From the NCBI GenBank assembly GCA_017412115.1, contig JAFPYR010000021.1, forward strand, positions 68,644-132,643: a DNA stretch of 64,000 nucleotides. The letters run 5' to 3'. Each line of letters opens with the position of its first letter. The first letter of the stretch is position 1. The translations under genes and the position numbers were made by a program. Below are positions 44,508 through 62,839 of this stretch, in pieces. The notes under the pieces are model-generated. The model worked only from the letters and a program-made list of their open reading frames with translations. It was not told the DNA's origin and did not search any database. The stretch comes from Bacteroidales bacterium. GTDB lineage: Bacteria; Bacteroidota; Bacteroidia; Bacteroidales; UBA3824.

Positions 44508-45569
44508 ATGAAAAATTTAATATTAAAGACATTAATTTTTGTTTTTCTGATAACTATCTCATTTTCAGATAGTATCTATGCTCAGTACGAAGGTGGAAAA
44601 GCAAATTTAGGAGCGGAGTTTGCCCCTTCGGGAAGTCAGTTTACGCAAGATGGTTTTTTAATCGAGAGAGGTTTGAAGCGTAAAAAGCAGAAAAAACTTT
44701 ATGAAAAATGGAAAAAACATCAAGATAAGCAAAAAAAGAAAATGGCGAAAGATTCTCTTAAAGCCGTCAAAAAATTGGAGAAAGATTCTCTAAAAGCAGC
44801 AAAAAAGTTGCAGGACGATTCTGAGGAGGATGAAGAGGTCAGCGAAAAGAAGGAAAAGAAAGCCGATAAAGCTGATGGTGATGTTATAATGGATAAGAAA
44901 GCCAGAAAGGAGCAGAAGAAAAAGGAGAAAGAAGAAAAAAAGAAGCGTAAGGAAGAAGAAAAGAAGAAGAAAAAAAGCGGAGAGTCTTTGGATGATAATT
45001 TAGATATGGATTATGACGTGCCTGACCTTGAGGATTTTGGTAAGGAGGGCGAGAGTGCTGAATTTGAAGTTCAGCAGGAGGCCGTCTTTGAAAAAACAGA
45101 TGATGTGGAGCAGGAAGAAAAGTCCAAAGACAAAAAAGAGAAGAAAGAAAAATCCAAAATGACTAAAGAGCAAAAGGAGGCTAAGAAAAAACAAGATAAA
45201 ATAACGAAAGATTTTAAGAAAAACAGCGGCAAGACTGTTGATAGGAAAAAGAGTCAGAAAATCAGGGAGAAGGAAATGCAGAAAGCCCAAAAAGAAGCAG
45301 AAAAGAAAGAGGCTGATGCAGAGCTTCATGCCCGTGCTGCCTCAGGCGGTGATTTGACCTCCAAGGAGAGAAAAACTTTGGAAAAGGAGCAGCGTAAACA
45401 GTATATTGCCGATTATAAACATCAGAAAAAGGCTAAAAAGGCAATCTTGAAAATTCAAGACAAAAAAACAGCCCGACAAATGAAAAAACATCATAAAAAG
45501 ACAGATAAAAAAATGAGGGACAGACACAAAAAATCGAAACCCGGATTTTTAAAGAACTTTTTTAAATAA
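44508..45569 (+). CDS. secreted Lys/Glu-rich low-complexity protein
   Basis: Signal peptide, then ~300 aa dominated by K, E and D (KKEKKEKSK, KKRKEEEKKKKK). Confidence 0.5.
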   Translation: MKNLILKTLIFVFLITISFSDSIYAQYEGGKANLGAEFAPSGSQFTQDGFLIERGLKRKKQKKLYEKWKKHQDKQKKKMAKDSLKAVKKLEKDSLKAAKKLQDDSEEDEEVSEKKEKKADKADGDVIMDKKARKEQKKKEKEEKKKRKEEEKKKKKSGESLDDNLDMDYDVPDLEDFGKEGESAEFEVQQEAVFEKTDDVEQEEKSKDKKEKKEKSKMTKEQKEAKKKQDKITKDFKKNSGKTVDRKKSQKIREKEMQKAQKEAEKKEADAELHARAASGGDLTSKERKTLEKEQRKQYIADYKHQKKAKKAILKIQDKKTARQMKKHHKKTDKKMRDRHKKSKPGFLKNFFK

Positions 45570-50915: not shown

Positions 50916-52280
50916 TTGAAACAAAATATCATCGAAAAATACAATGTACCTGTGCCGAGGTACACAAGTTATCCGCCCGCAAACTATTTTGCAGAGTTTA
51001 GCGAAGCGGACTTTAAAAATGCCGTCTTAATCTCTAACGAGGAAAAAGACAGCAATTTGTCGTTTTATATTCATTTCCCGTATTGCCCAAGGCTTTGCCA
51101 TTATTGTGCTTGCAATTCTTATGCTATGCCTCAAAAGGTAGATGTCGAAAAATATATCAAGGCTCTACACAAGGAAATCGACATGATTTTGCCGCTTTTG
51201 AACTCTAACAGAAAAATTTCACAAATTCATTACGGCGGCGGCACTCCTACGGCAATGCCTCTAAATGCAATTAAAGAACTTAATCAGCATTTACTGAGTA
51301 GTTTTCAGACGATTGAAAAGCCCGAAATCGCAATAGAATGTCATCCCGGCTATCTCGACGAAAAAGGTTGGCAAACTCTTGCCGAGGCGGGATTTACGCG
51401 GATGAGTTTGGGTATTCAGGATTTTAATGCTGACGTGCTTAAAACCGTTAATAGAAAACCTTCGCTGATTCCTATTGAAGAGGTGTTTAAGATTTTGCGT
51501 CAAAAAAATATTAAAATTAATCTCGATTTTCTTTACGGACTTCCGATTCAAACACCTGAGAGTTTTTATAACACTATCAGTAAGGCAGTTGCGCTTTCAC
51601 CGGATAGACTTGTAACTTTCAGTTACGCTCATGTGCCATGGATTAAAAAAGCACAATTAATCCTCGAAAAAGCAGGACTTCCAACGCCAGAAAACAAGGA
51701 AAAAATGTTTGAAAATGCTGCTCAACTCCTTGAAAAAGAAGGATATGTGCGCATCGGAATGGATCATTTCGTAAAACAAGATGACGAACTTTTTGAAGCA
51801 CTTCAAAACCATCGTCTCCACAGAAATTTTCAAGGCTATTGCACAAGACGTACAACGGCTCAGGTTTATGCTTTTGGCGTAACGGGAATTAGTCAGCTTA
51901 CCTCGGCTTATGCACAGAATACCAAGGATATAGCCGAATATGTTGATGAGGTTTTTAATGGTAAAATACCTGTTAGAAAGGGTTATCAACTAAATAAAAA
52001 TCAACAATTGGTACGAGAGGTTATTGAGGCCTTGATGTGTAATTATTACGTTGATTTTAAGGAAATTGCAGAAAGATTAAAGGTCGAAATTAAAGATCTA
52101 AAATCTGCAACGGAATATAATTTAGAAGTTTTTTCCAAGATGAGGGACGACGGTATTTTGGAATTTGACGAAAATACTTTAAAAATCACCGCCGAAGGGT
52201 CGCCTTTTGTGCGCAATGTTGCCGCTTCTCTCGATCCGCTGATGAAGAACACTACAAAATCATTCTCAAAACCGATTTAA
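50916..52280 (+). CDS. hemN: oxygen-independent coproporphyrinogen III oxidase (radical SAM); TTG start
   Basis: PRYTSYPPANYF; radical-SAM CPRLCHYCAC; HYGGGTPT. Confidence 0.9.
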   Translation: MKQNIIEKYNVPVPRYTSYPPANYFAEFSEADFKNAVLISNEEKDSNLSFYIHFPYCPRLCHYCACNSYAMPQKVDVEKYIKALHKEIDMILPLLNSNRKISQIHYGGGTPTAMPLNAIKELNQHLLSSFQTIEKPEIAIECHPGYLDEKGWQTLAEAGFTRMSLGIQDFNADVLKTVNRKPSLIPIEEVFKILRQKNIKINLDFLYGLPIQTPESFYNTISKAVALSPDRLVTFSYAHVPWIKKAQLILEKAGLPTPENKEKMFENAAQLLEKEGYVRIGMDHFVKQDDELFEALQNHRLHRNFQGYCTRRTTAQVYAFGVTGISQLTSAYAQNTKDIAEYVDEVFNGKIPVRKGYQLNKNQQLVREVIEALMCNYYVDFKEIAERLKVEIKDLKSATEYNLEVFSKMRDDGILEFDENTLKITAEGSPFVRNVAASLDPLMKNTTKSFSKPI

Positions 52281-52281
52281 A

Positions 52282-53658
52282 ATGAAAACAGATATATTAA
52301 TTATAGGTGCGGGTCTTACGGGACTTACAACCGCCTACACGTTAGCCTCAAAGGGCAAAAATGTTCATGTGTTGGAGCGTATGGAACGCCCCGGAGGTCA
52401 GATTCATACGTATTCAGAAGATGGTTTTGTTTTTGAAAGCGGTCCCAACACAGGCTCGATTTCAAATCCGGAGGTCGTAGAACTTATGCAGGAACTCGAA
52501 AAAACATCCAACGGAAAATGCCGTCTTGAAACCGCCCCCGATTCGTCGAAAAGGCGTTTGATTTGGAAGGGCGACCGTTTCAGAGAATTGCCTTCGGGAC
52601 TTGGAAGCGCAATCACAACTCCGCTTTTTACCCTCGGAGATAAATTTAGAATTTTGGGCGAACCGTGGCGAAAAAAAGGTACTAACCCCGATGAAACGGT
52701 TGGCGAATTGGCACGCCGCAGACTCGGAAAATCTTTCGTTGATTATGCCGTAGATCCTTTTCTTTCTGGAGTTTATGCCGGCGACCCTAATACTTTGGTA
52801 ACACGTTACGCATTGCCAAAACTTTATAATTTGGAACAAAATTATGGTTCGTTTGTGCGCGGTGCTATTAAAAAAGCAAAAGAGCCCAAAACCGACCGCG
52901 ACAAATTGGCTACAAAAAAAGTATTTTCTGCCATCGGTGGACTTTCAAATATAACAGATTCGATGGCTGACTTTTTGGGAGATAGAATTTCGCTCGGTGT
53001 CAGCAATTTAAAAATAAATCCGAAAGAAAACGCTTGGGAAGCAACTTTCTTGGATAAAAGCGGTAATTCTCAAACAATTAGCGCATTAACGGTGATAACA
53101 ACTTGCGGTTCGTATTCGTTGCCGGAGATTTTGCCGTTTGTGGAAACCGAGGATATGAATAAAGTTAATAACTTAAAATACGCTCCGATGATTGAAGTTT
53201 GCGTGGGCGTAAAAGATACTTTAGGCGGAGATTACAATGCTTTTGGCGGACTTGTGCCGACAATTGAAAAGAAAAAAGTTCTTGGAGTTTTGTTTCCATC
53301 AGCATGTTTTTCGGGACGTGCGCCTAAGTGCGGAGCGTTGTTTACGTATTTTATTGGTGGTGTTAAACACGCTGATATGCTCGAAAAATCCGACTCGGAA
53401 ATCACCTCTATCGTTGAGGAAGTTTTTCACGATATGCTGAAATTTCCATCGTCTGCAAAGCCTGATTTGATAAAAATTTTCAGACATAAGACGGCAATTC
53501 CGCAGTACGAACTTTCAACAGGAGAGCGACTTGCAGCCGTTGAAAAACTGCAAACAAAATATCCAGGACTTATCATTGCGGGCAACCTTCGCGATGGTAT
53601 CGGTATGGCTCACCGCATAAAACAAGCCCGCGACATTGCCGAAAAATTAATCGGATAA
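52282..53658 (+). CDS. hemY: protoporphyrinogen oxidase (FAD, HemY type)
   Basis: ILIIGAGLTGLTTAYTLA...VLERMERPGGQIHT; 458 aa; located within the heme operon. Confidence 0.8.
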   Translation: MKTDILIIGAGLTGLTTAYTLASKGKNVHVLERMERPGGQIHTYSEDGFVFESGPNTGSISNPEVVELMQELEKTSNGKCRLETAPDSSKRRLIWKGDRFRELPSGLGSAITTPLFTLGDKFRILGEPWRKKGTNPDETVGELARRRLGKSFVDYAVDPFLSGVYAGDPNTLVTRYALPKLYNLEQNYGSFVRGAIKKAKEPKTDRDKLATKKVFSAIGGLSNITDSMADFLGDRISLGVSNLKINPKENAWEATFLDKSGNSQTISALTVITTCGSYSLPEILPFVETEDMNKVNNLKYAPMIEVCVGVKDTLGGDYNAFGGLVPTIEKKKVLGVLFPSACFSGRAPKCGALFTYFIGGVKHADMLEKSDSEITSIVEEVFHDMLKFPSSAKPDLIKIFRHKTAIPQYELSTGERLAAVEKLQTKYPGLIIAGNLRDGIGMAHRIKQARDIAEKLIG

Positions 53659-53662
53659 AAAG

Positions 53663-54658
53663 ATGATAAAGTGTTTTCAAAATATTAATCGTCCGCCGGT
53701 ATGGTTGATGCGTCAGGCGGGAAGAGTGTTGCCAAGGTACAGAAAATTAAGAGAAAAGTATAGTTTTCGTGAACTTATGGAAACTCCGCAACTTGCCTCT
53801 GATGTTACACTTATGCCAGTAGAAGACCTTGGAGTGGATTTCGCAATTATTTTTAGCGACATTCTAACAGTACCGACGGCTTTGGGCATGGAAATAGAAT
53901 GGACGGAGTGTGGTCCGAAGTTTTTGAAACCACTTTGTGAGTTGGATAATCCGTCGAAATCGCTGAAAATAAATACTGAAAAATTTTCACACGTTTATAA
54001 GGCGATTGATAATGTTGTAAGTAGAAAAAATGTGCCGTTAATCGGTTTTTGCGGTGCTCCGCTTACAACGTTATGCTATATGATTCAGGGTGTTAGCAGC
54101 AAACAAAATTTTCCTGAGGCAAAAAAGTTTTTCTATACTCAAGCCTCAGACGCAAAAAAACTGATTGAAATTGTTACTGAAATTTCAATCGAATACGCTT
54201 TGAAACAGGTAGAGCACGGTGTTGAAGTTTTTCAGATTTTTGAGAGTAACGCCGGAATTTTGCCGACCGAAATGTATAAAGCGTTGATTTTGCCGAGTGT
54301 CAAGAAAATCTCTGACGCTGTACGCTCAAAAGGTGTCCCCGTGATTTTCTTTCCAAAAGGTATCGGGTTGGGACTAAAAAATATAACGTCGGAAATTTGC
54401 GATATTGTTGGAATAGATTGGCAGACAGATATTTGGGAGGCTCGACAAGTGGTTGATAACAAGGTAATGCTTCAAGGCAATTTTGACCCGCACTTGCTTT
54501 TGTCGCCACAAGAAAAAATCGCTGAGGAAATTGAAAAATATAGAAATTTCTTCTCTGAAAATCCTGATTGGATTGTCAATTTAGGTCATGGTGTTTTGGC
54601 GGAAACACCGTTTGAAAATGTAAAATTTTTTGTTGATAAAATAAAAAGTTTAAGATAA
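53663..54658 (+). CDS. hemE: uroporphyrinogen decarboxylase
   Basis: RPPVWLMRQAGRVLPRYRKLRE, the UroD signature. Confidence 0.9.
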   Translation: MIKCFQNINRPPVWLMRQAGRVLPRYRKLREKYSFRELMETPQLASDVTLMPVEDLGVDFAIIFSDILTVPTALGMEIEWTECGPKFLKPLCELDNPSKSLKINTEKFSHVYKAIDNVVSRKNVPLIGFCGAPLTTLCYMIQGVSSKQNFPEAKKFFYTQASDAKKLIEIVTEISIEYALKQVEHGVEVFQIFESNAGILPTEMYKALILPSVKKISDAVRSKGVPVIFFPKGIGLGLKNITSEICDIVGIDWQTDIWEARQVVDNKVMLQGNFDPHLLLSPQEKIAEEIEKYRNFFSENPDWIVNLGHGVLAETPFENVKFFVDKIKSLR

Positions 54659-54659
54659 A

Positions 54660-55556
54660 ATGATTCAGTATAAGTCAATTAGCCATCAGAATACGTCGCT
54701 TGCCGATAGGGAGCGATTTTTTAAGGAGTTTAACCGAGAAGGTGTTGGACCGTCTGTTTTTTTGCAGACTTGCAACCGTGTGGAACTTTACTATGGCGAC
54801 GGTGAGATTCCAAGTGAAGTATCGCGTCATCTTTTCCGTGTGGTTTGCGGTTTGGAATCGGCTATTACGGGCGAAAAAGCGGTTCAGGGACAGGTGAAAG
54901 ATGCTTATCTTGCGGCTCGAAATTCGCAAAAATTGCCTACGCCGATGCACAAACTTTTCGAAAGTGCCTTGCAAATTGGCAAACGTGTTCGCAACGAGAC
55001 GGAGATTTCGCACGGTGCGGTAAGCCACTCCTTGGCTGCTATTGAAATCATTGAACAAGAAAAAATCGACCTTTCAAATGCGAGGATTACGATTATTGGT
55101 GTTAACAAATTGACTGCTGACATCATTAAATTTTTGCACAATAAGGGTGCGCGGCTTGTTTTTCTTGCCAACAGAACGGAAGAAAAAGCCCGCAAACTTG
55201 CTGAACCATACGGCATTGATGTTTTCACGCTTGACGAGAAAGCAACATTTATGCAAGAAACCGACATTTTGATAAGTGCAACCTCGGCGCCATGTTCTAT
55301 TATCAAGAAATCGGATATTAATCCTAATCGTCCGTTGTTGGCTATTGACCTTGCTTTTCCGCGTGATATTGAACCCGATGTTACAGAAATTGAAGGCGTT
55401 ACGCTTTACAACCTTCATGATGTGGAGCAGAAAGTAAAGGATAATATTTCGATTCGTGAAGACGAAGTGAAAAAAGCGGAAGCCCTCATTGAAGAAGAAA
55501 TTGCTGAATTACAAGATATTATGGAACGTCGCAAACGTTATACGATGATAGCATAA
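54660..55556 (+). CDS. hemA: glutamyl-tRNA reductase, short form (298 aa)
   Basis: Catalytic motif LQTCNRVELY; GLESAITGEKAVQGQVK; Rossmann-like ITIIGVNKLTADII. The protein ends shortly after the NADPH domain. Confidence 0.75.
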   Translation: MIQYKSISHQNTSLADRERFFKEFNREGVGPSVFLQTCNRVELYYGDGEIPSEVSRHLFRVVCGLESAITGEKAVQGQVKDAYLAARNSQKLPTPMHKLFESALQIGKRVRNETEISHGAVSHSLAAIEIIEQEKIDLSNARITIIGVNKLTADIIKFLHNKGARLVFLANRTEEKARKLAEPYGIDVFTLDEKATFMQETDILISATSAPCSIIKKSDINPNRPLLAIDLAFPRDIEPDVTEIEGVTLYNLHDVEQKVKDNISIREDEVKKAEALIEEEIAELQDIMERRKRYTMIA

Positions 55557-55685: not shown

Positions 55686-56555
55686 ATGTCGAAATACCTT
55701 GACCCGAAGGCGGATTTGACCTTCAAAAAAGTGTTCGGAGAACATCTGAACCTTGTTTTAAGCCTTTTGAACGCATTGTTGCCGTTACCTGAGGGCATGG
55801 AAATAAAAACAGTGGAATATCTTTCGCCGGAAAACATTCCTGAAAATCCTGGCAAAAAATATTCTATCGTTGACGTGTATTGTACTGACAATCACGGCAG
55901 ACATTTTATCGTAGAAATGCAGTCGTATTGGAATACGGAATTTTTTTCGCGGACTTTATTCAATGCGGCTTCAATGTATGCCAAACAGTTAGAAAAAGGC
56001 AAGAGTTTTGGCGAGTTGAAAGATGTTTACGCTTTGTGCTTGGTAAATGATGTTAAGGCGTTTCCCGAATATGGCAAAGAGTATATTCAAGAATATTATT
56101 TGACAAACAAAAATCACACTGCCGACAAACATACTGATTTGTCGATGGTTTTTATAGTTTTGCCGAATTATACGCCTCAAAACCGTGCCGAAAAAAAAAT
56201 GCACGATTTATGGTTAAGGTTTTTAACTGAAATTGACGAAAATACCGACGATGCCGACCCCGAACTTTTGGCGAATAAAGAAACGTCAGAGGCTTTGGAA
56301 TTGTTAAGACGTTCAGCGTTTACACCCGGCGAATTGTTGGCATACAATCAGTATTGGCTTAATATCAGCACAGAAAAGTCGGCAATGGAGCGTGAGCGCA
56401 AAGAAGGAGAACAAATCGGTTTTGAAAAAGGCCGAGCGGAAGGCGAAAAGTCCAAAGCAGTTGAGATTGCTCGTAACTTTAAAAAAGCCGGTATTGACAT
56501 CAACGTTATTGCAGAAAACACCGGTCTTTCAGCCAACGAAATTTCAAAATTGTAA
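55686..56555 (+). CDS. Rpn-family / PD-(D/E)XK nuclease 'putative transposase' protein
   Basis: N-terminus YLDPKADLTFKKVFGEH...YSIVDVYCTDNHGRHFIVEMQ (D...E.Q nuclease core), characteristic of the PDDEXK_2 / YhgA-like family. Confidence 0.8.
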   Translation: MSKYLDPKADLTFKKVFGEHLNLVLSLLNALLPLPEGMEIKTVEYLSPENIPENPGKKYSIVDVYCTDNHGRHFIVEMQSYWNTEFFSRTLFNAASMYAKQLEKGKSFGELKDVYALCLVNDVKAFPEYGKEYIQEYYLTNKNHTADKHTDLSMVFIVLPNYTPQNRAEKKMHDLWLRFLTEIDENTDDADPELLANKETSEALELLRRSAFTPGELLAYNQYWLNISTEKSAMERERKEGEQIGFEKGRAEGEKSKAVEIARNFKKAGIDINVIAENTGLSANEISKL

Positions 56556-56652: not shown

Positions 56653-56661
56653 GGGGGGGGG
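56653..56661. repeat. G9 homopolymer tract next to a direct repeat AAAGTCAAGTA x2
   Basis: TAGGGGGGGGGAAAAG read directly. Only long G run noticed in this AT-rich window. Confidence 0.8.
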
Positions 56662-56706
56662 AAAAGTCCTTTCTACTTTACTTCGATTTGAAATGATAAT
56701 TTCTTG

Positions 56707-56753
56707 TCCCTTGTGGAGAGTGTAAAAAAGCACTCTCCACAAGGGATTTTTTT
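56707..56753 (+). terminator. strong rho-independent terminator
   Basis: TCCCTTGTGGAGAGTG-TAAAAAA-GCACTCTCCACAAGGGA followed by T7. Confidence 0.8.
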
Positions 56754-56776: not shown

Positions 56777-58039
56777 ATGAAAAAGTTAAATTTTTTATTG
56801 TTAAGTGCATTAGTATTTGCGCTAACATTTTTTTCGTGCAACAAGCACGACGATGACAAAACCGAACCCGAAAAAACGCAGGTTGAAAACAACAATTCGG
56901 GCAACACTGAAGTTACACCCGAAAAAGTAACAGTAGCTTTCAATATTTCCGGCGGAACGGGTGCAGTTGAATCTCAAACCGTTGAAAAAGGCACAAAAAT
57001 CACCTTGCCCTCAGGCGAAGGTATTACAAAAGAGGGTTACAAGTTTTTGGGGTGGAATTTAAAAGAAAACGGAGAAATCATTTCAGAATACACCGTAACC
57101 GAAAAGGAAGTAACACTTTTTGCTGTATGGGTACAAACGTTTACCGTAGAATTTGATACCGACAAAGGAACGGGTGAATTTGCTGCACAGACAATCGAAA
57201 AAGGTAAGACGGCAACAGAACCTGAAACCAAACCATCAAAAGGAGGTTTTAAGTTTTTAGGTTGGTATGATGGTGACACGGAGTTTGATTTTTCAAGCCC
57301 GATAACAACAGAAATTACTTTGAAAGCAAAGTATGAGTATGCCAAGTTTTCAGTAGCCGAGGGCAAACAAGTTGCTTTTAGCGGTGGCAATTTGCAGTAC
57401 CACTGCAAAAACGGAACTTGGCGTTTTGCCCCGAATCAATACGACCTTATCGGAGATGCTAACCAAAACATCTCTGCAGATTACGACGGTTATATTGACC
57501 TCTTTGGATGGGGAACATGGCTTGATGGAGGCAATCCTATAAACAACAGCGAAATAAACAGCGATTACACTTGGAACAATACCAAAAAGTCTGCTATTGA
57601 TAAAGAAGGTGAAGAATGGGTAACACTAACCAAAGACGAGTGGGTATATTTAGAAGACCATAGCGTAATTGGTGTAGCCGCAGTTGACGGTAAACAAGGT
57701 TTGGTAATATTGCCTGATGATTGGACATTACCTAATGGCGTTACATTCAATAGTGGTTTTGCAGACAACTATGGTGCAGACTATTATCAAGAAAAAAACA
57801 ATTACACTACAAACCAATGGGAGAGTATGGAGGCTAACGGTGCGGTGTTTCTTCCCGCTGCCGGCCGCCGCTACGGCTCTGACGTGGTCGGTGTCGGAGG
57901 CTGCGGCCGCTACTGGTCGGCTACGGCTGGCGGCTCCGAGAACGCGTGCTACTTGTACTTCTCCTCGGACATCGCGGATTGGGGCAACGACAACCGTTAC
58001 TTCGGGAATTCGGTTCGGTTGGTGCGGGTTTTGCAGTAG
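56777..58039 (+). CDS. surface lipoprotein: two Listeria-Bacteroides (InlB B-type) repeats + C-terminal FISUMP/DUF1566-like lectin-fold domain
   Basis: Lipobox FFSC; repeats ...EGYKFLGWNLKENGE...FAVW and ...GGFKFLGWYDGDTEFDF...; C-terminus AVFLPAAGRRYG...GRYWSA...RYFGNSVRLVRV. Confidence 0.75.
   Translation: MKKLNFLLLSALVFALTFFSCNKHDDDKTEPEKTQVENNNSGNTEVTPEKVTVAFNISGGTGAVESQTVEKGTKITLPSGEGITKEGYKFLGWNLKENGEIISEYTVTEKEVTLFAVWVQTFTVEFDTDKGTGEFAAQTIEKGKTATEPETKPSKGGFKFLGWYDGDTEFDFSSPITTEITLKAKYEYAKFSVAEGKQVAFSGGNLQYHCKNGTWRFAPNQYDLIGDANQNISADYDGYIDLFGWGTWLDGGNPINNSEINSDYTWNNTKKSAIDKEGEEWVTLTKDEWVYLEDHSVIGVAAVDGKQGLVILPDDWTLPNGVTFNSGFADNYGADYYQEKNNYTTNQWESMEANGAVFLPAAGRRYGSDVVGVGGCGRYWSATAGGSENACYLYFSSDIADWGNDNRYFGNSVRLVRVLQ
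57841..58036 (+). other. A-depleted GC-rich 3' cassette (candidate DGR variable region)
   Basis: Hand counts: ~22 A in 196 nt, and 81 G+C in 120 nt for 57841-57960. The preceding 120 nt of the same gene has 44 A. Confidence 0.5.
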
Positions 58040-58078
58040 TTACCGAGTTCTGTCTTGACAGAAGAAAAAAAAATAATC

Positions 58079-58108
58079 AGCCCACCGATTTTTTCGGTGG
58101 GCTTTTTT
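58079..58108 (+). terminator. rho-independent terminator
   Basis: AGCCCACCGA-TTTTT-TCGGTGGGCT followed by TTTTT. Confidence 0.8.
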
Positions 58109-58165
58109 GTGAAATTGATAAAAAAAATTACCTTTGCCAATAAAATTATAAAGCAAACATAAACC

Positions 58166-58267
58166 ATGCAGTATTACGACCCAAAAACCGACGTTGTTTT
58201 CAAGAAAATTTTTGCTACACATCTTAGCCTTTTAAAAGTGTTTTTCGCATCAGAAATACATTCTTAA
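58166..58267 (+). pseudogene. 5' remnant of a second Rpn/PD-(D/E)XK transposase-like gene
   Basis: Hand-translated MQYYDPKTDVVFKKIFATHLSLLKVFFASEIHS*. Its first ~23 codons align with MSKYLDPKADLTFKKVFGEHLNLV of 55686. It has its own TACCTTTG box at 58129-58136 and is cut off next to the MBL gene 3' end. Confidence 0.55.
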
Positions 58268-58294: not shown

Positions 58295-59161
58295 TTAATA
58301 TGGTAGGTGCATACCGCAGATTATGAGATTGTTAGATTTTGCTAATTCCAAAATTCTCTTGCGTGAAGCGATGGCTTTTTCTTTGTCACCGTCAAAATTT
58401 GCACAATATTCAGGATGCGGCAACTGCAAAGCAGCAGCGTGCATTAAATCTCCGATTATCAACAAATTGCCTTTTTGAAAAACTGTATGACCCGGTGTAT
58501 GTCCAACAGCGTCAATAGCAAGGACATCTTCGGGAAGTTTGTCACCAAAGTTGAAAACATGAATTTTGTCGCCGTATTGCTCAAACATTTGTACTGCTAA
58601 ATCTTGTTTGCCAAGGTCTGACTCTTTTTCTAGACGCGAAACATACACTTCGGCATTAACAAAAACTTTCTTGCCCTCAGCAGTCAGCATTCCGCCAATA
58701 TGGTCGCCGTGAAAATGTGTAATACACACATAATCAATTTGTTCCGGAGTTACGCCAATTTTAGAAAGTTCATCCAAAAGTTGCCCGTTAGCCTTCTGAC
58801 CAAGCCCCGAATCAAACAGAATATTTTTGCCGTTAACCTTTATCAGATAGGCACTTATCGACGAGGGCATACCATCGGGCATATTAACCTCTTTTTTAAC
58901 GTCGTCGGCAACATTTCCAAACAAGTCAAACGGAAATTTGTGGTCGCCGTTGTTGTCTTTAAGCCAGTAGACAGTGAAACCGTCAAACGCCTTTTCTTTG
59001 CTGTCAAGAAACTTGTAATCAGATTGTTGTGCCGATTTGTCGCAACATTGAGCGCTTACCTGATTGTCGCATTGAGGATTGTTTTGAGCACTATTTTTGG
59101 CATTGTTGCCACAGCCCGCAGCAATCAAAGCCGCACACGAGAATAATAAAAAATTGTTCAT
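58295..59161 (-). CDS. MBL-fold metallo-hydrolase lipoprotein
   Basis: Lipobox AAGC; HFHGDHIGG zinc motif; later GHTPGH and DLMH. Confidence 0.85.
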   Translation of the reverse strand: MNNFLLFSCAALIAAGCGNNAKNSAQNNPQCDNQVSAQCCDKSAQQSDYKFLDSKEKAFDGFTVYWLKDNNGDHKFPFDLFGNVADDVKKEVNMPDGMPSSISAYLIKVNGKNILFDSGLGQKANGQLLDELSKIGVTPEQIDYVCITHFHGDHIGGMLTAEGKKVFVNAEVYVSRLEKESDLGKQDLAVQMFEQYGDKIHVFNFGDKLPEDVLAIDAVGHTPGHTVFQKGNLLIIGDLMHAAALQLPHPEYCANFDGDKEKAIASRKRILELAKSNNLIICGMHLPY

Positions 59162-59279: not shown

Positions 59280-59933
59280 ATGAACGTTAACAATACAATC
59301 CGCATAATAGCCCGCGAGAGTCGTCTCTCAAAAATTCAAGTGGAGGAATTTATAAAAAAATTCCCTGAATTAAAATTTTCAGTAGAATATATTTCGTCGT
59401 TTGGCGACAAGAACCAAAAAATTTCTCTACTTAACGGCGAAGCACCCGACGATATGTTTACCCGCGAACTTGACGAGGCAATCATAGAAAACCGTGCTGA
59501 CATTGCAGTTCATTCGGCAAAAGATTTACCGCAAACGCTTAATCCGAAGATTCAGTTAGCGGCTCTGTATGAGGCTTTTGACAAAACTGACTCACTTGTT
59601 AGCCGTGATAATTTGAAACTTTCGGAACTTCCCGCCGGCAGCAAAATCGGCACAAGTTCGCCGCTTAGAAAAAAAGAAATTCTTTCGCTCCGTCCCGACC
59701 TCGAAATTGTTGGTATACGCGGCTGTATCGAAGACCGTGTAAATCAAGTACGTAGCGGGAAAATCGATGCGGCAATCGTTGCAACGTGCGCTCTCAAACG
59801 CCTTGGAATGGAAAACGAAATCGCTGAAATCTTGCCTTTTGAAACGCACCCAATGCAAGGACGTTTGGCGGTAACATGCAGAAAAGACGATAATTACATT
59901 TGCGAACTTCTTAAAAAAGGTTCGATATTATGA
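59280..59933 (+). CDS. hemC: hydroxymethylbilane synthase homolog, domains 1-2 only (217 aa)
   Basis: IRIIARESRLSKIQ, ADIAVHSAKDLP, IGTSSPLRKKE, RGCIEDRVNQV...DAAIVATCALKRLG and GRLAVTCRKDD align with HemC motifs. The ORF stops where domain 3 should begin. Confidence 0.75.
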   Translation: MNVNNTIRIIARESRLSKIQVEEFIKKFPELKFSVEYISSFGDKNQKISLLNGEAPDDMFTRELDEAIIENRADIAVHSAKDLPQTLNPKIQLAALYEAFDKTDSLVSRDNLKLSELPAGSKIGTSSPLRKKEILSLRPDLEIVGIRGCIEDRVNQVRSGKIDAAIVATCALKRLGMENEIAEILPFETHPMQGRLAVTCRKDDNYICELLKKGSIL

Positions 59934-60535
59934 CGGTGCTTTATACGGGCGCAGTTTGTCCAAATTCGTCATATATCCATACACCGTTAATCGAGATTGA
60001 CAAAGTGGACGATGATACGCTGCTACGTTCTGCTACTAATCGTCTACAAGAATTTGATTATCTGCTCTTTACAAGTCGTTTTGCTGTAAAATATTGGATG
60101 CTTTCAGGCGGAGGATTTGATATTAAAAAAATAGTGTCGATAGGCGAAAAAACGAGTGAGGCCTTACGAAAGGCTGGTGTTAAAAATATAAATCAAACAT
60201 TAAAAGACGATTCTTTCGGCGTGATTGATTGGTTTTCTATGCAGAAAAAAGGACGAGTTCTGATTCCACGCAGCAATATAGCATTACCGATAATTCCGGA
60301 AGGTTTAAAGTCGTTAGGTTTTGACGTTGAAACAGTTACAGCATATATCAACCGTATGCCCGAAAATCCCCAAAAAGTTAATCTTGATAATATCGACAAA
60401 ATTATTTTCACCTCGCCAAGTACGGTTGATAATTTTTTGAAACTTTACGGCGCTATTCCCCGTTATAAAGAATTGGTAACAAGAGGCGTGGTGACGCAAA
60501 AAAGATTGGAGGAGTATTTTACGAAAAATTCTTGA
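59930..60535 (+). CDS. hemD: uroporphyrinogen-III synthase
   Basis: ATGA overlap with hemC. Two-lobed HemD pattern (LLFTSRFAVKYW ... IIFTSPSTVDNFL). Confidence 0.7.
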   Translation: MTVLYTGAVCPNSSYIHTPLIEIDKVDDDTLLRSATNRLQEFDYLLFTSRFAVKYWMLSGGGFDIKKIVSIGEKTSEALRKAGVKNINQTLKDDSFGVIDWFSMQKKGRVLIPRSNIALPIIPEGLKSLGFDVETVTAYINRMPENPQKVNLDNIDKIIFTSPSTVDNFLKLYGAIPRYKELVTRGVVTQKRLEEYFTKNS

Positions 60536-60555
60536 ATAGTTTTCAAATTATTTGG

Positions 60556-60563
60556 TAATTTTG
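60556..60563 (+). promoter_or_regulatory. internal -7 box TAATTTTG ahead of hemB
   Basis: Lies within the TTG-initiated extension of track ORF 60552. Supports ATG 60585 as the hemB start. Confidence 0.35.
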
Positions 60564-60584
60564 CAGAAAAATATTTTTTACGAT

Positions 60585-61571
60585 ATGGAATTGAAGTCAT
60601 TCAAAAGATTTAGGATTTTCCGTGTATCTCAGGAGACACGCGACAAATATGCCGACATTAAAGTAGAGGCAGAAGATTTTATTTACCCGTATTTCGTGGT
60701 TGAAGGCAGCAACGTTAAAGACGAAATTTCAACAATGCCGGGAATTTTCAGGTTTTCAATTGATACACTCGTTGAAGACGTTAAAGAAATCAAAGCGTTA
60801 GGAATCAACAAAGTATTGCTTTTCGGCGTTATTCCCGACAGCGAAAAAGACGAACGTGGCTCTAAGGCTTACGATGAAAACGCACTTGTTTGCCGTGCCG
60901 TTAAAGCGATAAAAAATGCAGTTCCCGATATGATTGTGATTACCGACGTCTGCCTTTGCGAATATACAAGTCATGGACACTGCGGACTTCTTTGCAATCA
61001 TGACGTGGACAACGACAGCACATTGCCGCTACTTGCAGAAATGGCCTACGTTCACGCCAAAGCAGGTGCAGATTTTGTTGCGCCGTCGGCTATGATGGAC
61101 GGTCAGATTGCCGCTCTTGACGCACGTTTGAAAGAAGGCGGTTTGAGGGACAAATGCAAAATTCTCGCTTATTCAGCCAAATATGCTTCGGCTTTTTACG
61201 GACCGTTCCGTGATGCAGCCGATTCTGCACCGTCGTTCGGCGACAGAAAAACCTATCAAATGGACTTCCGCACTCACGACCAAGGTTTGGAAGAAATAGC
61301 CGCCGACATCGAAGAAGGTGCTGACTGGACAATGGTAAAACCCGCAATGCCTTATCTTGACATGATTGCACGCGGCGTTGAAAAATACCCGAACGTCCCG
61401 ATGGTGGCTTATCAAGTCAGCGGAGAATATTCGATGCTGAAAGCAGCCGCAAAACTGAACTATTTGGACGAGAAACGCACTGTTTTTGAGAGTCTTATCG
61501 CAATCAAAAGAGCCGGCGCAAAATATATTATTTCGTATTACGCAAAAGAATACATGCAAAAATGGGCATAA
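60585..61571 (+). CDS. hemB: porphobilinogen synthase (delta-aminolevulinate dehydratase), Zn type
   Basis: Cys-rich zinc site DVCLCEYTSHGHCG; active-site region VKPAMPYLD; AYQVSGEYSM. Confidence 0.9.
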   Translation: MELKSFKRFRIFRVSQETRDKYADIKVEAEDFIYPYFVVEGSNVKDEISTMPGIFRFSIDTLVEDVKEIKALGINKVLLFGVIPDSEKDERGSKAYDENALVCRAVKAIKNAVPDMIVITDVCLCEYTSHGHCGLLCNHDVDNDSTLPLLAEMAYVHAKAGADFVAPSAMMDGQIAALDARLKEGGLRDKCKILAYSAKYASAFYGPFRDAADSAPSFGDRKTYQMDFRTHDQGLEEIAADIEEGADWTMVKPAMPYLDMIARGVEKYPNVPMVAYQVSGEYSMLKAAAKLNYLDEKRTVFESLIAIKRAGAKYIISYYAKEYMQKWA

Positions 61572-62839
61572 ATCAAAGACCTTTATCTCTGGCAGCATAC
61601 GAAAGGGCTTGTCAGGTAATTCCGGGCGGTGTTAATAGTCCCGTCCGTGCGCTGAAAAGTGTCGGCACAACTCCGCTTTTTGTCAAAGATGCAAAAGGTG
61701 CATATTTCAACGACATTGACGGCAACAAATTTGTAGATTTTTGTATGTCGTGGGGAGTTTTTATCCTCGGACATAACAATTCAGAAGTGTCAAATGCTGC
61801 AATCAAGGCGGTTCTTAACGGCAGCAGTTACGGTATACCTTGCGAGGCGGAGACACTTTTAGCGGAAAAAGTGCGTGAAGCGTTTCCGTCGATGGAACGT
61901 TTGAGGTTTGTTAACAGCGGCACTGAGGCGACAATGTCGGCAATTCGTGTTGCACGTGGCTATACTGGTAGGGACATTTTAGTAAAGTTTGAAGGCAATT
62001 ATCACGGACATGCTGACCATCTTTTGGTTTCGGCGGGCTCTGGCGTGGCAAACATTAGCAACGCATCGTCGGCAGGCGTTCCTTCTGATTTTGTGAAACA
62101 TACTGCTGTTTTGCCTTACAACGATGTTGAGGCTCTCAAAAAATATTTTGACGAAAACGGCGACAAAGTTGCGGCACTTATCATAGAACCTGTTGCCTGC
62201 AACATGGGCGTTGTGCCGCCGAGTGAGGAATTTTTGAAATTAACCCGCGAGGTTACACAAAAGCACGGCGCGGTATTGATTTTTGACGAGGTGATAACAG
62301 GTTTCAGACTTTCATACGGCGGAGCGCAGCAACGTTTTGGCATTAAACCCGATATGACAACGGTTGGAAAAATTGTCGGCGGCGGTTATCCTGCGGCGGC
62401 CTTTGGCGGAAGAGCCGACATTATGAAATGTCTTGCACCGGAAGGTCCTGTTTATCAGGCAGGAACGCTCAGCGGAAATCCCGTAGCAATGGCGGCAGGT
62501 CTTGCAACGCTAAATATTCTCAGCAACAAAAAAGTTTATGAAGACCTTGAAAAACGCAGCGACAGTTTTATCGCCCGCCTGAAAAAAATAATTGACGGCA
62601 AAGGCATTCAACTCAACCGTTGCGGCACGATGTTCACGCTGTTTTTCAATGAGAATCCCGTGCGTAATTTTCAGGACACAAAACGCAGTAATCAGGAGAA
62701 ATTTGCAAAATATTTTCGCAATATGCTTTCACGCGGCATTTACGTCAGTCCGTCGCAGTTTGAGGGAAACTTTATTTCAGTTTGTCATACCGACGAGGTT
62801 CTGGAAAAAGTTTTGAAAGCGATAGAAGAAAGTATTTAA
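61562..62839 (+). CDS. hemL: glutamate-1-semialdehyde 2,1-aminomutase
   Basis: IPGGVNSPVRA; FDEVITGFR; PLP-lysine region TTVGKIVGGG. Confidence 0.9.
   Translation: MGINQRPLSLAAYERACQVIPGGVNSPVRALKSVGTTPLFVKDAKGAYFNDIDGNKFVDFCMSWGVFILGHNNSEVSNAAIKAVLNGSSYGIPCEAETLLAEKVREAFPSMERLRFVNSGTEATMSAIRVARGYTGRDILVKFEGNYHGHADHLLVSAGSGVANISNASSAGVPSDFVKHTAVLPYNDVEALKKYFDENGDKVAALIIEPVACNMGVVPPSEEFLKLTREVTQKHGAVLIFDEVITGFRLSYGGAQQRFGIKPDMTTVGKIVGGGYPAAAFGGRADIMKCLAPEGPVYQAGTLSGNPVAMAAGLATLNILSNKKVYEDLEKRSDSFIARLKKIIDGKGIQLNRCGTMFTLFFNENPVRNFQDTKRSNQEKFAKYFRNMLSRGIYVSPSQFEGNFISVCHTDEVLEKVLKAIEESI

Follow-up and report, generated by a model that had tools for sequence, protein, structure and literature searches.

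The stretch of DNA analysed here, a window of 64,000 nucleotides (64 kb) from a metagenome-assembled genome (MAG) of a Bacteroidales bacterium, carries a lipoprotein gene whose 3′ end departs sharply in base composition from the rest of the gene. A first-pass annotation, made from the letters of the window alone, had read this 3′ end as the candidate variable region (VR) of a diversity-generating retroelement (DGR) whose template repeat (TR) and reverse transcriptase (RT) are not at hand. The gene and its parts are listed below; the open reading frame (ORF) and the C-terminal peptide quoted in that annotation were both confirmed by translation.

56777-58039, + strand: lipoprotein coding sequence (CDS), 420 aa; found as an ORF and equal to GenBank MBQ3688834.1, "InlB B-repeat-containing protein", MAG Bacteroidales bacterium.
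56777-56839, + strand: signal peptide and lipobox (..LTFFS-C21), then the acidic NKHDDDK; from the translation and weak N-terminal matches to Bacteroidota lipoprotein families.
56939-57331, + strand: two Listeria-Bacteroides / InlB B repeats (Flg_new); Pfam PF09479 in two stretches (E = 5.9e-23) and PF18998 (E = 3.5e-5).
57347-58036, + strand: 230-aa C-terminal domain of ligand-binding type, FISUMP/DUF1566-like; common to verified DGR targets, homologues labelled DUF8237/PF26707.
57846-58036, + strand: very probable VR, GTGTTTCTTCC...TTGCAG, A-poor and GC-rich; from composition, homology to TRs and codon-position inversion.
58010-58036, + strand: 3′ anchor TCGGTTCGGTTGGTGCGGGTTTTGCAG (SVRLVRVLQ); from an alignment of nine related VRs.
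58037-58078, + strand: stop codon and rearranged 3′ flank, TAGTTACCGAGTTCTGTCTTGACAGAAG..; from alignments with relatives and from folding.
58079-58109 (stem 58079-58103), + strand: intrinsic terminator with a 10-bp stem (7 GC pairs) and a T-run; from folding, z = -6.1 for 58037-58115.

The encoded N-terminus, MKKLNFLLLSALVFALTFFS-C-NKHDDDK, has both hallmarks of a lipoprotein, a lipobox cysteine and acidic residues that follow it, and is kept in the homologues of the protein. An acidic stretch after the lipobox cysteine is typical of surface-exported Bacteroidota lipoproteins; judging from this export signal, the window lipoprotein would be exported to the cell surface, and the InlB B repeats probably act as a stalk. 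The protein, a member of the exact-sequence cluster P0232, has more than 2,900 homologues, the named ones from Bacteroidales and Paludibacteraceae MAGs, and the window locus recurs, at 99.93-100% identity, on 4-5 metagenome contigs from the ruminant gut.

The compositional break at the end of the gene was exact on recount. Positions 57841-57960 contain 10 A, 38 C, 43 G and 29 T (G+C 81/120), and the longer stretch 57841-58036 has 22 A in 196 nt and a GC content of 63.8%; the 120 nt of the same ORF that precede position 57841 contain 44 A. The GC content of the whole window is 38.1%, slightly higher than the "mid-30s" of the first-pass annotation. Compared with all 196-nt segments of the 64 kb, 57841-58036 is the minimum for A (21-22) and the maximum for GC (127/196); 0.009% of the segments are as A-poor and 0.03% as GC-rich, and the composition profile steps at about 57820-58060. 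Within the VR, third codon positions are occupied by 1 A, 29 C, 11 G and 7 T.

The VR abuts the stop codon of the CDS and lies inside the C-terminal domain; in relatives of the gene, the homology between TR and VR begins at the equivalent of GTGTTTCTTCC. The window VR was compared with those of eight related loci (L002, L013, L016, L019, L024, L047, L059 and L075; nine VRs in all), and the alignment shows a nucleotide scaffold, running approximately from ATGGAGGCTAACGGTGCGGTG to GTTTTGCAG, that is identical across the window and the related loci and is broken by codons that vary as NNC. In a six-locus alignment, pairwise differences at codon positions 1, 2 and 3 amount to 0.43/0.44/0.28 in the VR core, as opposed to 0.30/0.29/0.42 in the part of these genes that precedes it. 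Across six of the nine aligned VRs, the 100 invariant columns include only 4 A, compared to 22% A in the 105 variable columns. The closest relative of the window gene, L059, is 88-93% identical to it in the 180 nt before the VR, with many third-position changes; inside the VR identity is 72-83%, and the mismatches are distributed 18/16/6 by codon position. L019 and L047, which are 98.4% identical upstream, differ at 11/165 sites in the VR vs. 17/1082 sites upstream (p = 4e-4). An A-free scaffold combined with NNC variation is the outcome of a template with A-free scaffold codons and AAC at the variable codons; the GC island itself arises because scaffold codons without A force G, C or T at all three positions.

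The 3′ anchor of the VR is more strictly conserved than the genes that bear it, which differ at about 40% of third positions elsewhere: none of the nine VRs departs from its first 19 nt, and the full 27 nt are identical in 8/9, with deviating last bases in L016 (..TTTTAG) and L047 (GTTGTGCAG). The anchor probably represents the TR-matching end of the VR together with the start of the recognition region, the initiation of mutagenic homing (IMH) sequence.

A predicted template led to complete DGR cassettes of the same family. A 67-aa peptide, derived from the VR by placing Asn at the variable codons, was searched against a collection of 5.8 billion proteins and returned 111 short proteins, of which almost every one is an Asn-rich ORF (..VFLPAAGNRNGTSVNNVGSNGNYWSST..NNNNRYNGQSVRLV.., for example ..VFLPAAGNRNGTSVNNVGSNGNYWSSTANGTNNAYNLNFNS..NNNNRYNGQSVRLV..); in all three contigs that were looked up, the Asn-rich ORF is located directly 5′ of an RVT_1 RT gene. 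The complete cassettes, all from rumen Bacteroidales, are L036-L039 and L076, and in L036-L039 the order is target, accessory gene of ~180 aa, TR and RT. As a positive control, TR/VR mismatches in these cassettes coincide with TR adenines in 28/33 cases (85%) in L036 and 27/32 cases (84%) in L039; the published criterion for a DGR template places at least 75% of TR/VR mismatches at A (PMC8144416). TR and VR of L036 and L039 have the SVRLVR-coding stretch in common and diverge right after it. The cis targets of L036 and L039 are 46 and 50% identical to residues 191-420 of the window protein (E = 2e-50 and 1e-62, respectively), and since they share the entire 230-aa domain, the window gene belongs to a verified DGR target family.

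The cassette RTs bear the motifs IGNLTSQ..YVDD. Their best relative in the PDB is the 328-aa RT of 8ub7-8ube (E = 1.8e-31), presumably the Bordetella phage DGR RT; the next match of any kind (8bgj, 2.4e-8), the best group II intron RT (6me0, 2e-7) and the retron RTs all follow far behind. The accessory gene (L036 9346-9900; L039 2420-2962) encodes a protein of ~180 aa that has no match in Pfam, NCBIfam or PHROG; the Avd proteins of classical DGRs are shorter. The replacement of variable codons by Asn, followed by a search of short ORFs, provides a working recipe that yields templates together with their RTs. As a separate observation, TRs of this family (P0121-P0231; for example L036 10001-10336 and L039 2986-3321) are routinely called as "hypothetical proteins" of 50-118 aa in public assemblies, and the TR ORFs hold precomputed matches to PF26707 (DUF8237) and PF07603, with the consequence that non-coding templates are counted as members of protein families.

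The homology of the entire domain to the targets of complete cassettes, the A-free scaffold with its NNC variation, and the Asn-rich TR ORFs of the same family bear out the first-pass annotation, and make it very likely that 57846-58036, the 3′-terminal segment of this surface lipoprotein gene, is a DGR-written VR. The window gene would be a remote or retired DGR target, with its TR and RT outside the 64 kb; we infer that another part of the genome has, or had until recently, a cognate TR. Two paralogues with neighbouring accession numbers, MBQ3691577 (P0002) and MBQ3691005 (P0238), have the same scaffold and other variable codons, and P0002 was found alongside the window gene in two samples; most likely, the genome holds at least two paralogous targets that share this scaffold.

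The mechanism of DGRs, in which a TR transcript gives rise to adenine-directed mutagenic complementary DNA (cDNA) that replaces the VR, is established. At the window locus, a TR of VR length and rich in AAC codons would be transcribed; the DGR RT and the accessory protein would copy it into cDNA and misincorporate opposite the template adenines; and the cDNA would replace the VR, anchored by its conserved 3′ end. A-free scaffold codons would escape mutation, Asn AAC codons would turn into NNC, and in a genome of 38% GC the A-free scaffold and the NNC codons would together appear as an adenine-depleted, GC-rich stretch. The VR would form the exposed end of a C-type-lectin-like or FISUMP-like domain on a surface lipoprotein, and its rewriting would vary a ligand-binding surface; the VR-bearing domain presumably binds a ligand.

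The assignment of this domain to the DUF1566/FISUMP type, made in the first-pass annotation from its C-terminal sequence pattern, could be upheld in part: the fold is partly seen, and the sequence scores remain below threshold. The domain scores 13.9 bits against Lcl_C/DUF1566 in Pfam, under the cut-off of 34.9, and 27-29 bits against FISUMP TIGR02145, under the cut-off of 41.65, although E = 2e-6; PF26707 is recorded for many homologues and TR ORFs, not for the window protein. The suggested modelling of the domain gave a confident AlphaFold2 model (residues 190-420, mean predicted local distance difference test score 96) with partial or low-scoring matches of the C-type-lectin type. In Foldseek comparisons with the PDB, the best match is the C-terminal domain of Legionella Lcl (8q4e; probability 0.98, only 43 columns), and matches to C-type lectin domains are weak; in BFVD, two phage proteins annotated as "Fibrobacter succinogenes major paralogous domain" were matched with probabilities of 1.0 and 0.98 over ~244 columns, with template-modelling (TM) scores of only 0.37-0.41. 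TvpA and Mtd were not recovered in the structure comparisons of the model, and no solved structure was matched when the PDB was searched by sequence, either with the domain or with a profile of 43 sequences. Membership in the C-type-lectin fold is plausible on the basis of the model.

Several results weigh against the DGR assignment. The structural support for a C-type-lectin fold is local or of low TM score. The 64-kb window contains no TR or second VR copy by permissive blastn (only chance matches of 19 nt or less) and no RT by motif scan and by tblastn with two DGR RTs; a tblastn search of the window with the domain and the predicted TR peptide matched the gene itself only. Both absences had been noted in the first-pass annotation. 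Outside the window, no cognate TR was detected in IMG/VR, in GTDB representative genomes, in JGI metagenomes, or among the called ORFs of the 5.8-billion-protein collection, and three recovered TRs that were compared as DNA match the window VR at just 74-80% of non-A positions and use other synonymous codons in the anchor. VR lengths vary among the paralogues (L002 -18/+15 nt, L059 +12 nt, L019 +6 nt), which implies that a single TR could not be in register with every one of these VRs. Five assemblies, drawn from at least two studies, have the same window VR without a difference; since these assemblies are 99.93-100% identical overall, the comparison has little power. The related loci carry a conserved element, AACTAACCATATC..CAAACAAAAA, after the VR, and a similar one follows the cis VRs of L036 and L039; the window has other sequence in its place from 58037 onward, and the last 30 nt of the window VR show the non-adenine changes CAG to AAT and AAC to TAG.

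The searches for a cognate TR were made along several lines. Exact scans with the 19-nt anchor sequence returned eight unrelated chance matches in IMG/VR, four related loci in three Bacteroidales MAGs among the GTDB genomes, all of them VRs, and five related loci in the JGI metagenomes, all VRs or remnants; TR-specific patterns, with AAC at the variable codons, had no match in IMG/VR or in the JGI metagenomes. A related-locus search of viral contigs yielded three distant relatives, without RT or TR, and none of 50,697 phage records was matched in BLAST searches with the VR, its peptide or the domain. No NCBI-derived TR ORF that bears an accession falls within the accession range of the window MAG, and four bear none. 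As a caveat, these negative results are limited by the incompleteness of MAGs and by TRs that are not always called as ORFs. Further, the TR of L039 differs from its own VR at the base equivalent to position 18 of the 19-mer, and consequently an exact 19-mer scan can miss TRs; TCGGTTCGGTTGGTGCG is the anchor-derived string for a search that tolerates one or two mismatches.

The hairpin that the first-pass annotation had noted 3′ of the VR is present as an inverted repeat, TTCTGT-CTTG-ACAGAA at 58048-58063; its suggested part as a DGR stem-loop did not hold up. It folds at -3.5 kcal/mol (z = -1.8), 8/200 shuffled sequences fold equally well, and it is missing from every related locus; the 6-bp hairpin was rejected as a DGR cruciform for being weak and not conserved. 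The strong hairpin at 58079-58103 looks like the ordinary terminator of the lipoprotein gene.

If the tail was written by a DGR, it could have been written in the past or could still be rewritten. The balance tips slightly in favour of a target that is retired or seldom used. There is about an even chance that the VR is a fossil, a sub-case of the DGR assignment in which the element or its recognition sequences have since been lost and the tail evolves as ordinary coding sequence. The want of a cognate TR in every collection searched agrees with this view, as do the sameness of the VR in the five assemblies, the replacement of the conserved 3′ flank together with two or three non-adenine substitutions among the final 30 nt, the truncation of the partner Rpn gene (see below), the in-frame indels among paralogous VRs, and the pseudogenization of the relatives L075 and L053. 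It is harder to reconcile with the first ~160 nt of the scaffold, where the group consensus is kept in spite of 7-40% divergence between the flanking gene and its relatives, with the intact ORF, and with the recent VR-specific change in the sister lineage L019/L047; moreover, MAGs are incomplete, and a TR that deviates in the last bases of the 19-mer, like that of L039, could escape the exact-match scans.

That the window VR is still being rewritten can be proposed only tentatively. Under such a scenario, possible and yet on the doubtful side, a DGR cassette elsewhere in the genome, in a prophage or in another mobile element would rewrite the VR in trans, too rarely to alter consensus assemblies. 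The intact scaffold and ORF are in accordance with a remote target in use, and so are the several one-scaffold paralogues with different variable codons, probably in one genome, and the excess of VR-specific change between near-identical strains of a paralogue lineage; trans-acting DGRs and static, TR-matching VRs have been documented (PMC10907252), and remote targets escape standard detection (PMC8144416). The lack of a TR or RT in the window and of a cognate TR in the collections searched, as well as the rearranged 3′ flank, argue in the opposite direction. A distant relative, P0011, is likewise identical on 17 contigs from different samples.

It is highly improbable that no DGR was involved. 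In such a case, recombination or horizontal transfer would have brought in a GC-rich domain end, for instance along with the neighbouring Rpn-like gene, and ordinary positive selection would drive its variation. Two observations agree with this explanation: the block past the VR is 85-100% identical where gene bodies are 55-73% identical, evidence of recombination or concerted evolution whose boundary is the VR, and the insert that harbours the gene interrupts a haem operon. It does not account for 4% A in invariant vs. 22% in variable columns, for codon positions 1-2 varying above position 3, or for Asn-rich templates of the same family that stand beside bRT-like RTs and show A-specific mismatches to targets with the whole domain in common.

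As a very probable DGR target, the window gene joins a known kind, the remote and lipoprotein targets, and the mechanism is not new. DGR-diversified lipoproteins are known from Treponema denticola (TvpA) and Legionella pneumophila (LdtA), as cited in a survey of DGRs (PMC8144416, refs 4 and 5). They resemble the window protein as lipoproteins whose C-terminal VR is encoded at the very 3′ end of the gene, with a scaffold of the G..G.YWS...A...R..G.SVR type, adenine-specific NNC variation, and presumed surface display; they differ in that their TR and RT adjoin the target, whereas the window gene has neither within 64 kb and no cognate TR was found for it in the collections named above, and in that the window domain measures 230 aa and is preceded by InlB B repeats. 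The cassettes L036-L039 and L076 share with the window gene the 230-aa target domain (46-50% identity), the TR family, and the logic of an SVRLVR-coding 3′ anchor; in contrast to the window gene, their targets are in cis and lack an Rpn-like neighbour, and a comparison of their TRs with the window VR shows differences at 20-26% of non-A sites and at synonymous anchor positions. In Thiohalocapsa PB-PSB1, targets are remote from RT and TR; some VRs agree at every non-A site with a TR that lies far away, and one such VR is undiversified (PMC10907252); the target of the window is likewise away from any RT and TR, but the matching TR of PB-PSB1 is known from a complete genome, and the window genome is a MAG. 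The prototype DGR, Mtd/bRT of Bordetella phage BPP-1, is similar in the mechanism inferred here, in its RT (presumably that of 8ub7-8ube), to which the RTs of the related cassettes are closest, and in the divergence of TR and VR right after a common 3′ stretch, which resembles IMH vs. IMH*. It differs in diversifying a phage tail fibre and not a cellular lipoprotein; also, the accessory protein of the related cassettes is ~180 aa long without a family match, and no GC-rich cruciform adjoins the window VR.

Standard DGR surveys require an RT that adjoins the repeats, and state that remote targets are missed (PMC8144416). The window gene illustrates that a DGR target can be recognized by composition alone, without a retroelement nearby; it adds surface lipoproteins of rumen Bacteroidales, annotated merely as "InlB B-repeat-containing protein", to the hypervariable ligand-binding proteins.

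The lipoprotein gene is flanked by genes of the Rpn family, in line with the first-pass annotation, which had placed it next to Rpn-like nuclease genes; the upstream neighbour is intact, and the second is a short remnant. These genes and their counterparts at related loci are:

55686-56555, + strand: intact Rpn-like PD-(D/E)XK nuclease gene, upstream of the lipoprotein gene; PF12784, E = 1.4e-39.
58166-58264, + strand: 32-codon remnant of an Rpn-like (PDDEXK_2) gene; BLASTP E = 7e-7 to the intact neighbour, N-terminus MQYYDPKTDVVFKKIF resembling MKYYDPRADILFKKIF of relatives.
L002 3898-4764, L024 2188-3048, L053 548-1456 and L075 5462-6334: Rpn-like partner genes at related loci.

In most of the related loci examined, the PDDEXK_2 gene begins ~140-165 nt past the stop codon of the VR. 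The intergenic region and the Rpn gene are 85-100% identical across loci whose lipoprotein bodies are just 55-73% identical, with the exception of the L047 Rpn gene (~60%), and the genomic settings differ, with suf genes at L002 and L024 and fumarase at L075. Because this homogenized sequence lies downstream of the VR, beyond the reach of retrohoming, it implies a second process, namely recombination, concerted evolution or module mobility. It appears unlikely, though it would fit the pairing, that DGR-born VRs persist without a template and move as two-gene modules with the Rpn-family nuclease, and that the nuclease promotes exchange of VR cassettes among paralogues or aids trans-homing at remote targets. 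If true, such a role would add a second diversification layer above retrohoming; a functional Rpn link would also join two recombination or diversification systems that are unconnected in the literature searched, in which no mention of DGRs together with Rpn or PDDEXK was found.

VR-gene pseudogene remnants with degraded 5′ parts precede intact Rpn genes at L075 4990-5356 and L053 ~300-420; the L053 remnant begins mid-VR, directly behind another gene. The idea that stand-alone ORFs consisting of the VR only (P0134/L075, L053) represent a mobile VR unit was rejected, since L075 has retained decayed gene sequence upstream, in-frame stop included.

The Rpn-like gene, the lipoprotein gene and a gene for a metallo-beta-lactamase-fold protein form an insert of ~3.7 kb between hemA and hemC. 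The haem/tetrapyrrole cluster that is split at this point occupies 50916-55556 and 59280-62839 of the window; its first part consists of radical-SAM HemN-like, amino-oxidase HemG/Y-like, URO-D and GlutR genes, and its second part of PBG deaminase, HEM4, ALAD and class-III aminotransferase genes. The metallo-beta-lactamase-fold protein (58295-59161, - strand) has a lipoprotein-like N-terminus (..AAGCGNN); its match to the anti-Pycsar Apyc1 family is weak (19 bits, below the cut-off of 50). A run of nine G (56653-56661) and an 18-bp perfect stem-loop with a T-run (56706-56747) occupy part of the gap that separates the Rpn-like gene from the lipoprotein start. The nine-G tract could, from its sequence, act as a slipped-strand switch for the promoter region of the lipoprotein gene; its length is unchanged in four other assemblies, which align without gaps.

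A distant branch of the family (L025-L031; for example L025 6863-14828) has arrays of three paralogues (645, 637 and 398 aa) that are interleaved with RhuM-family genes; P0011, mentioned above for its 17 identical copies, is one of these paralogues, and some members of this branch have two tandem copies of the VR-bearing domain. The opposite compositional extreme of the window, unrelated to the VR, is an ORF at 44508-45569 that is strongly A-rich and T-poor (419 A and 138 T in 885 nt).

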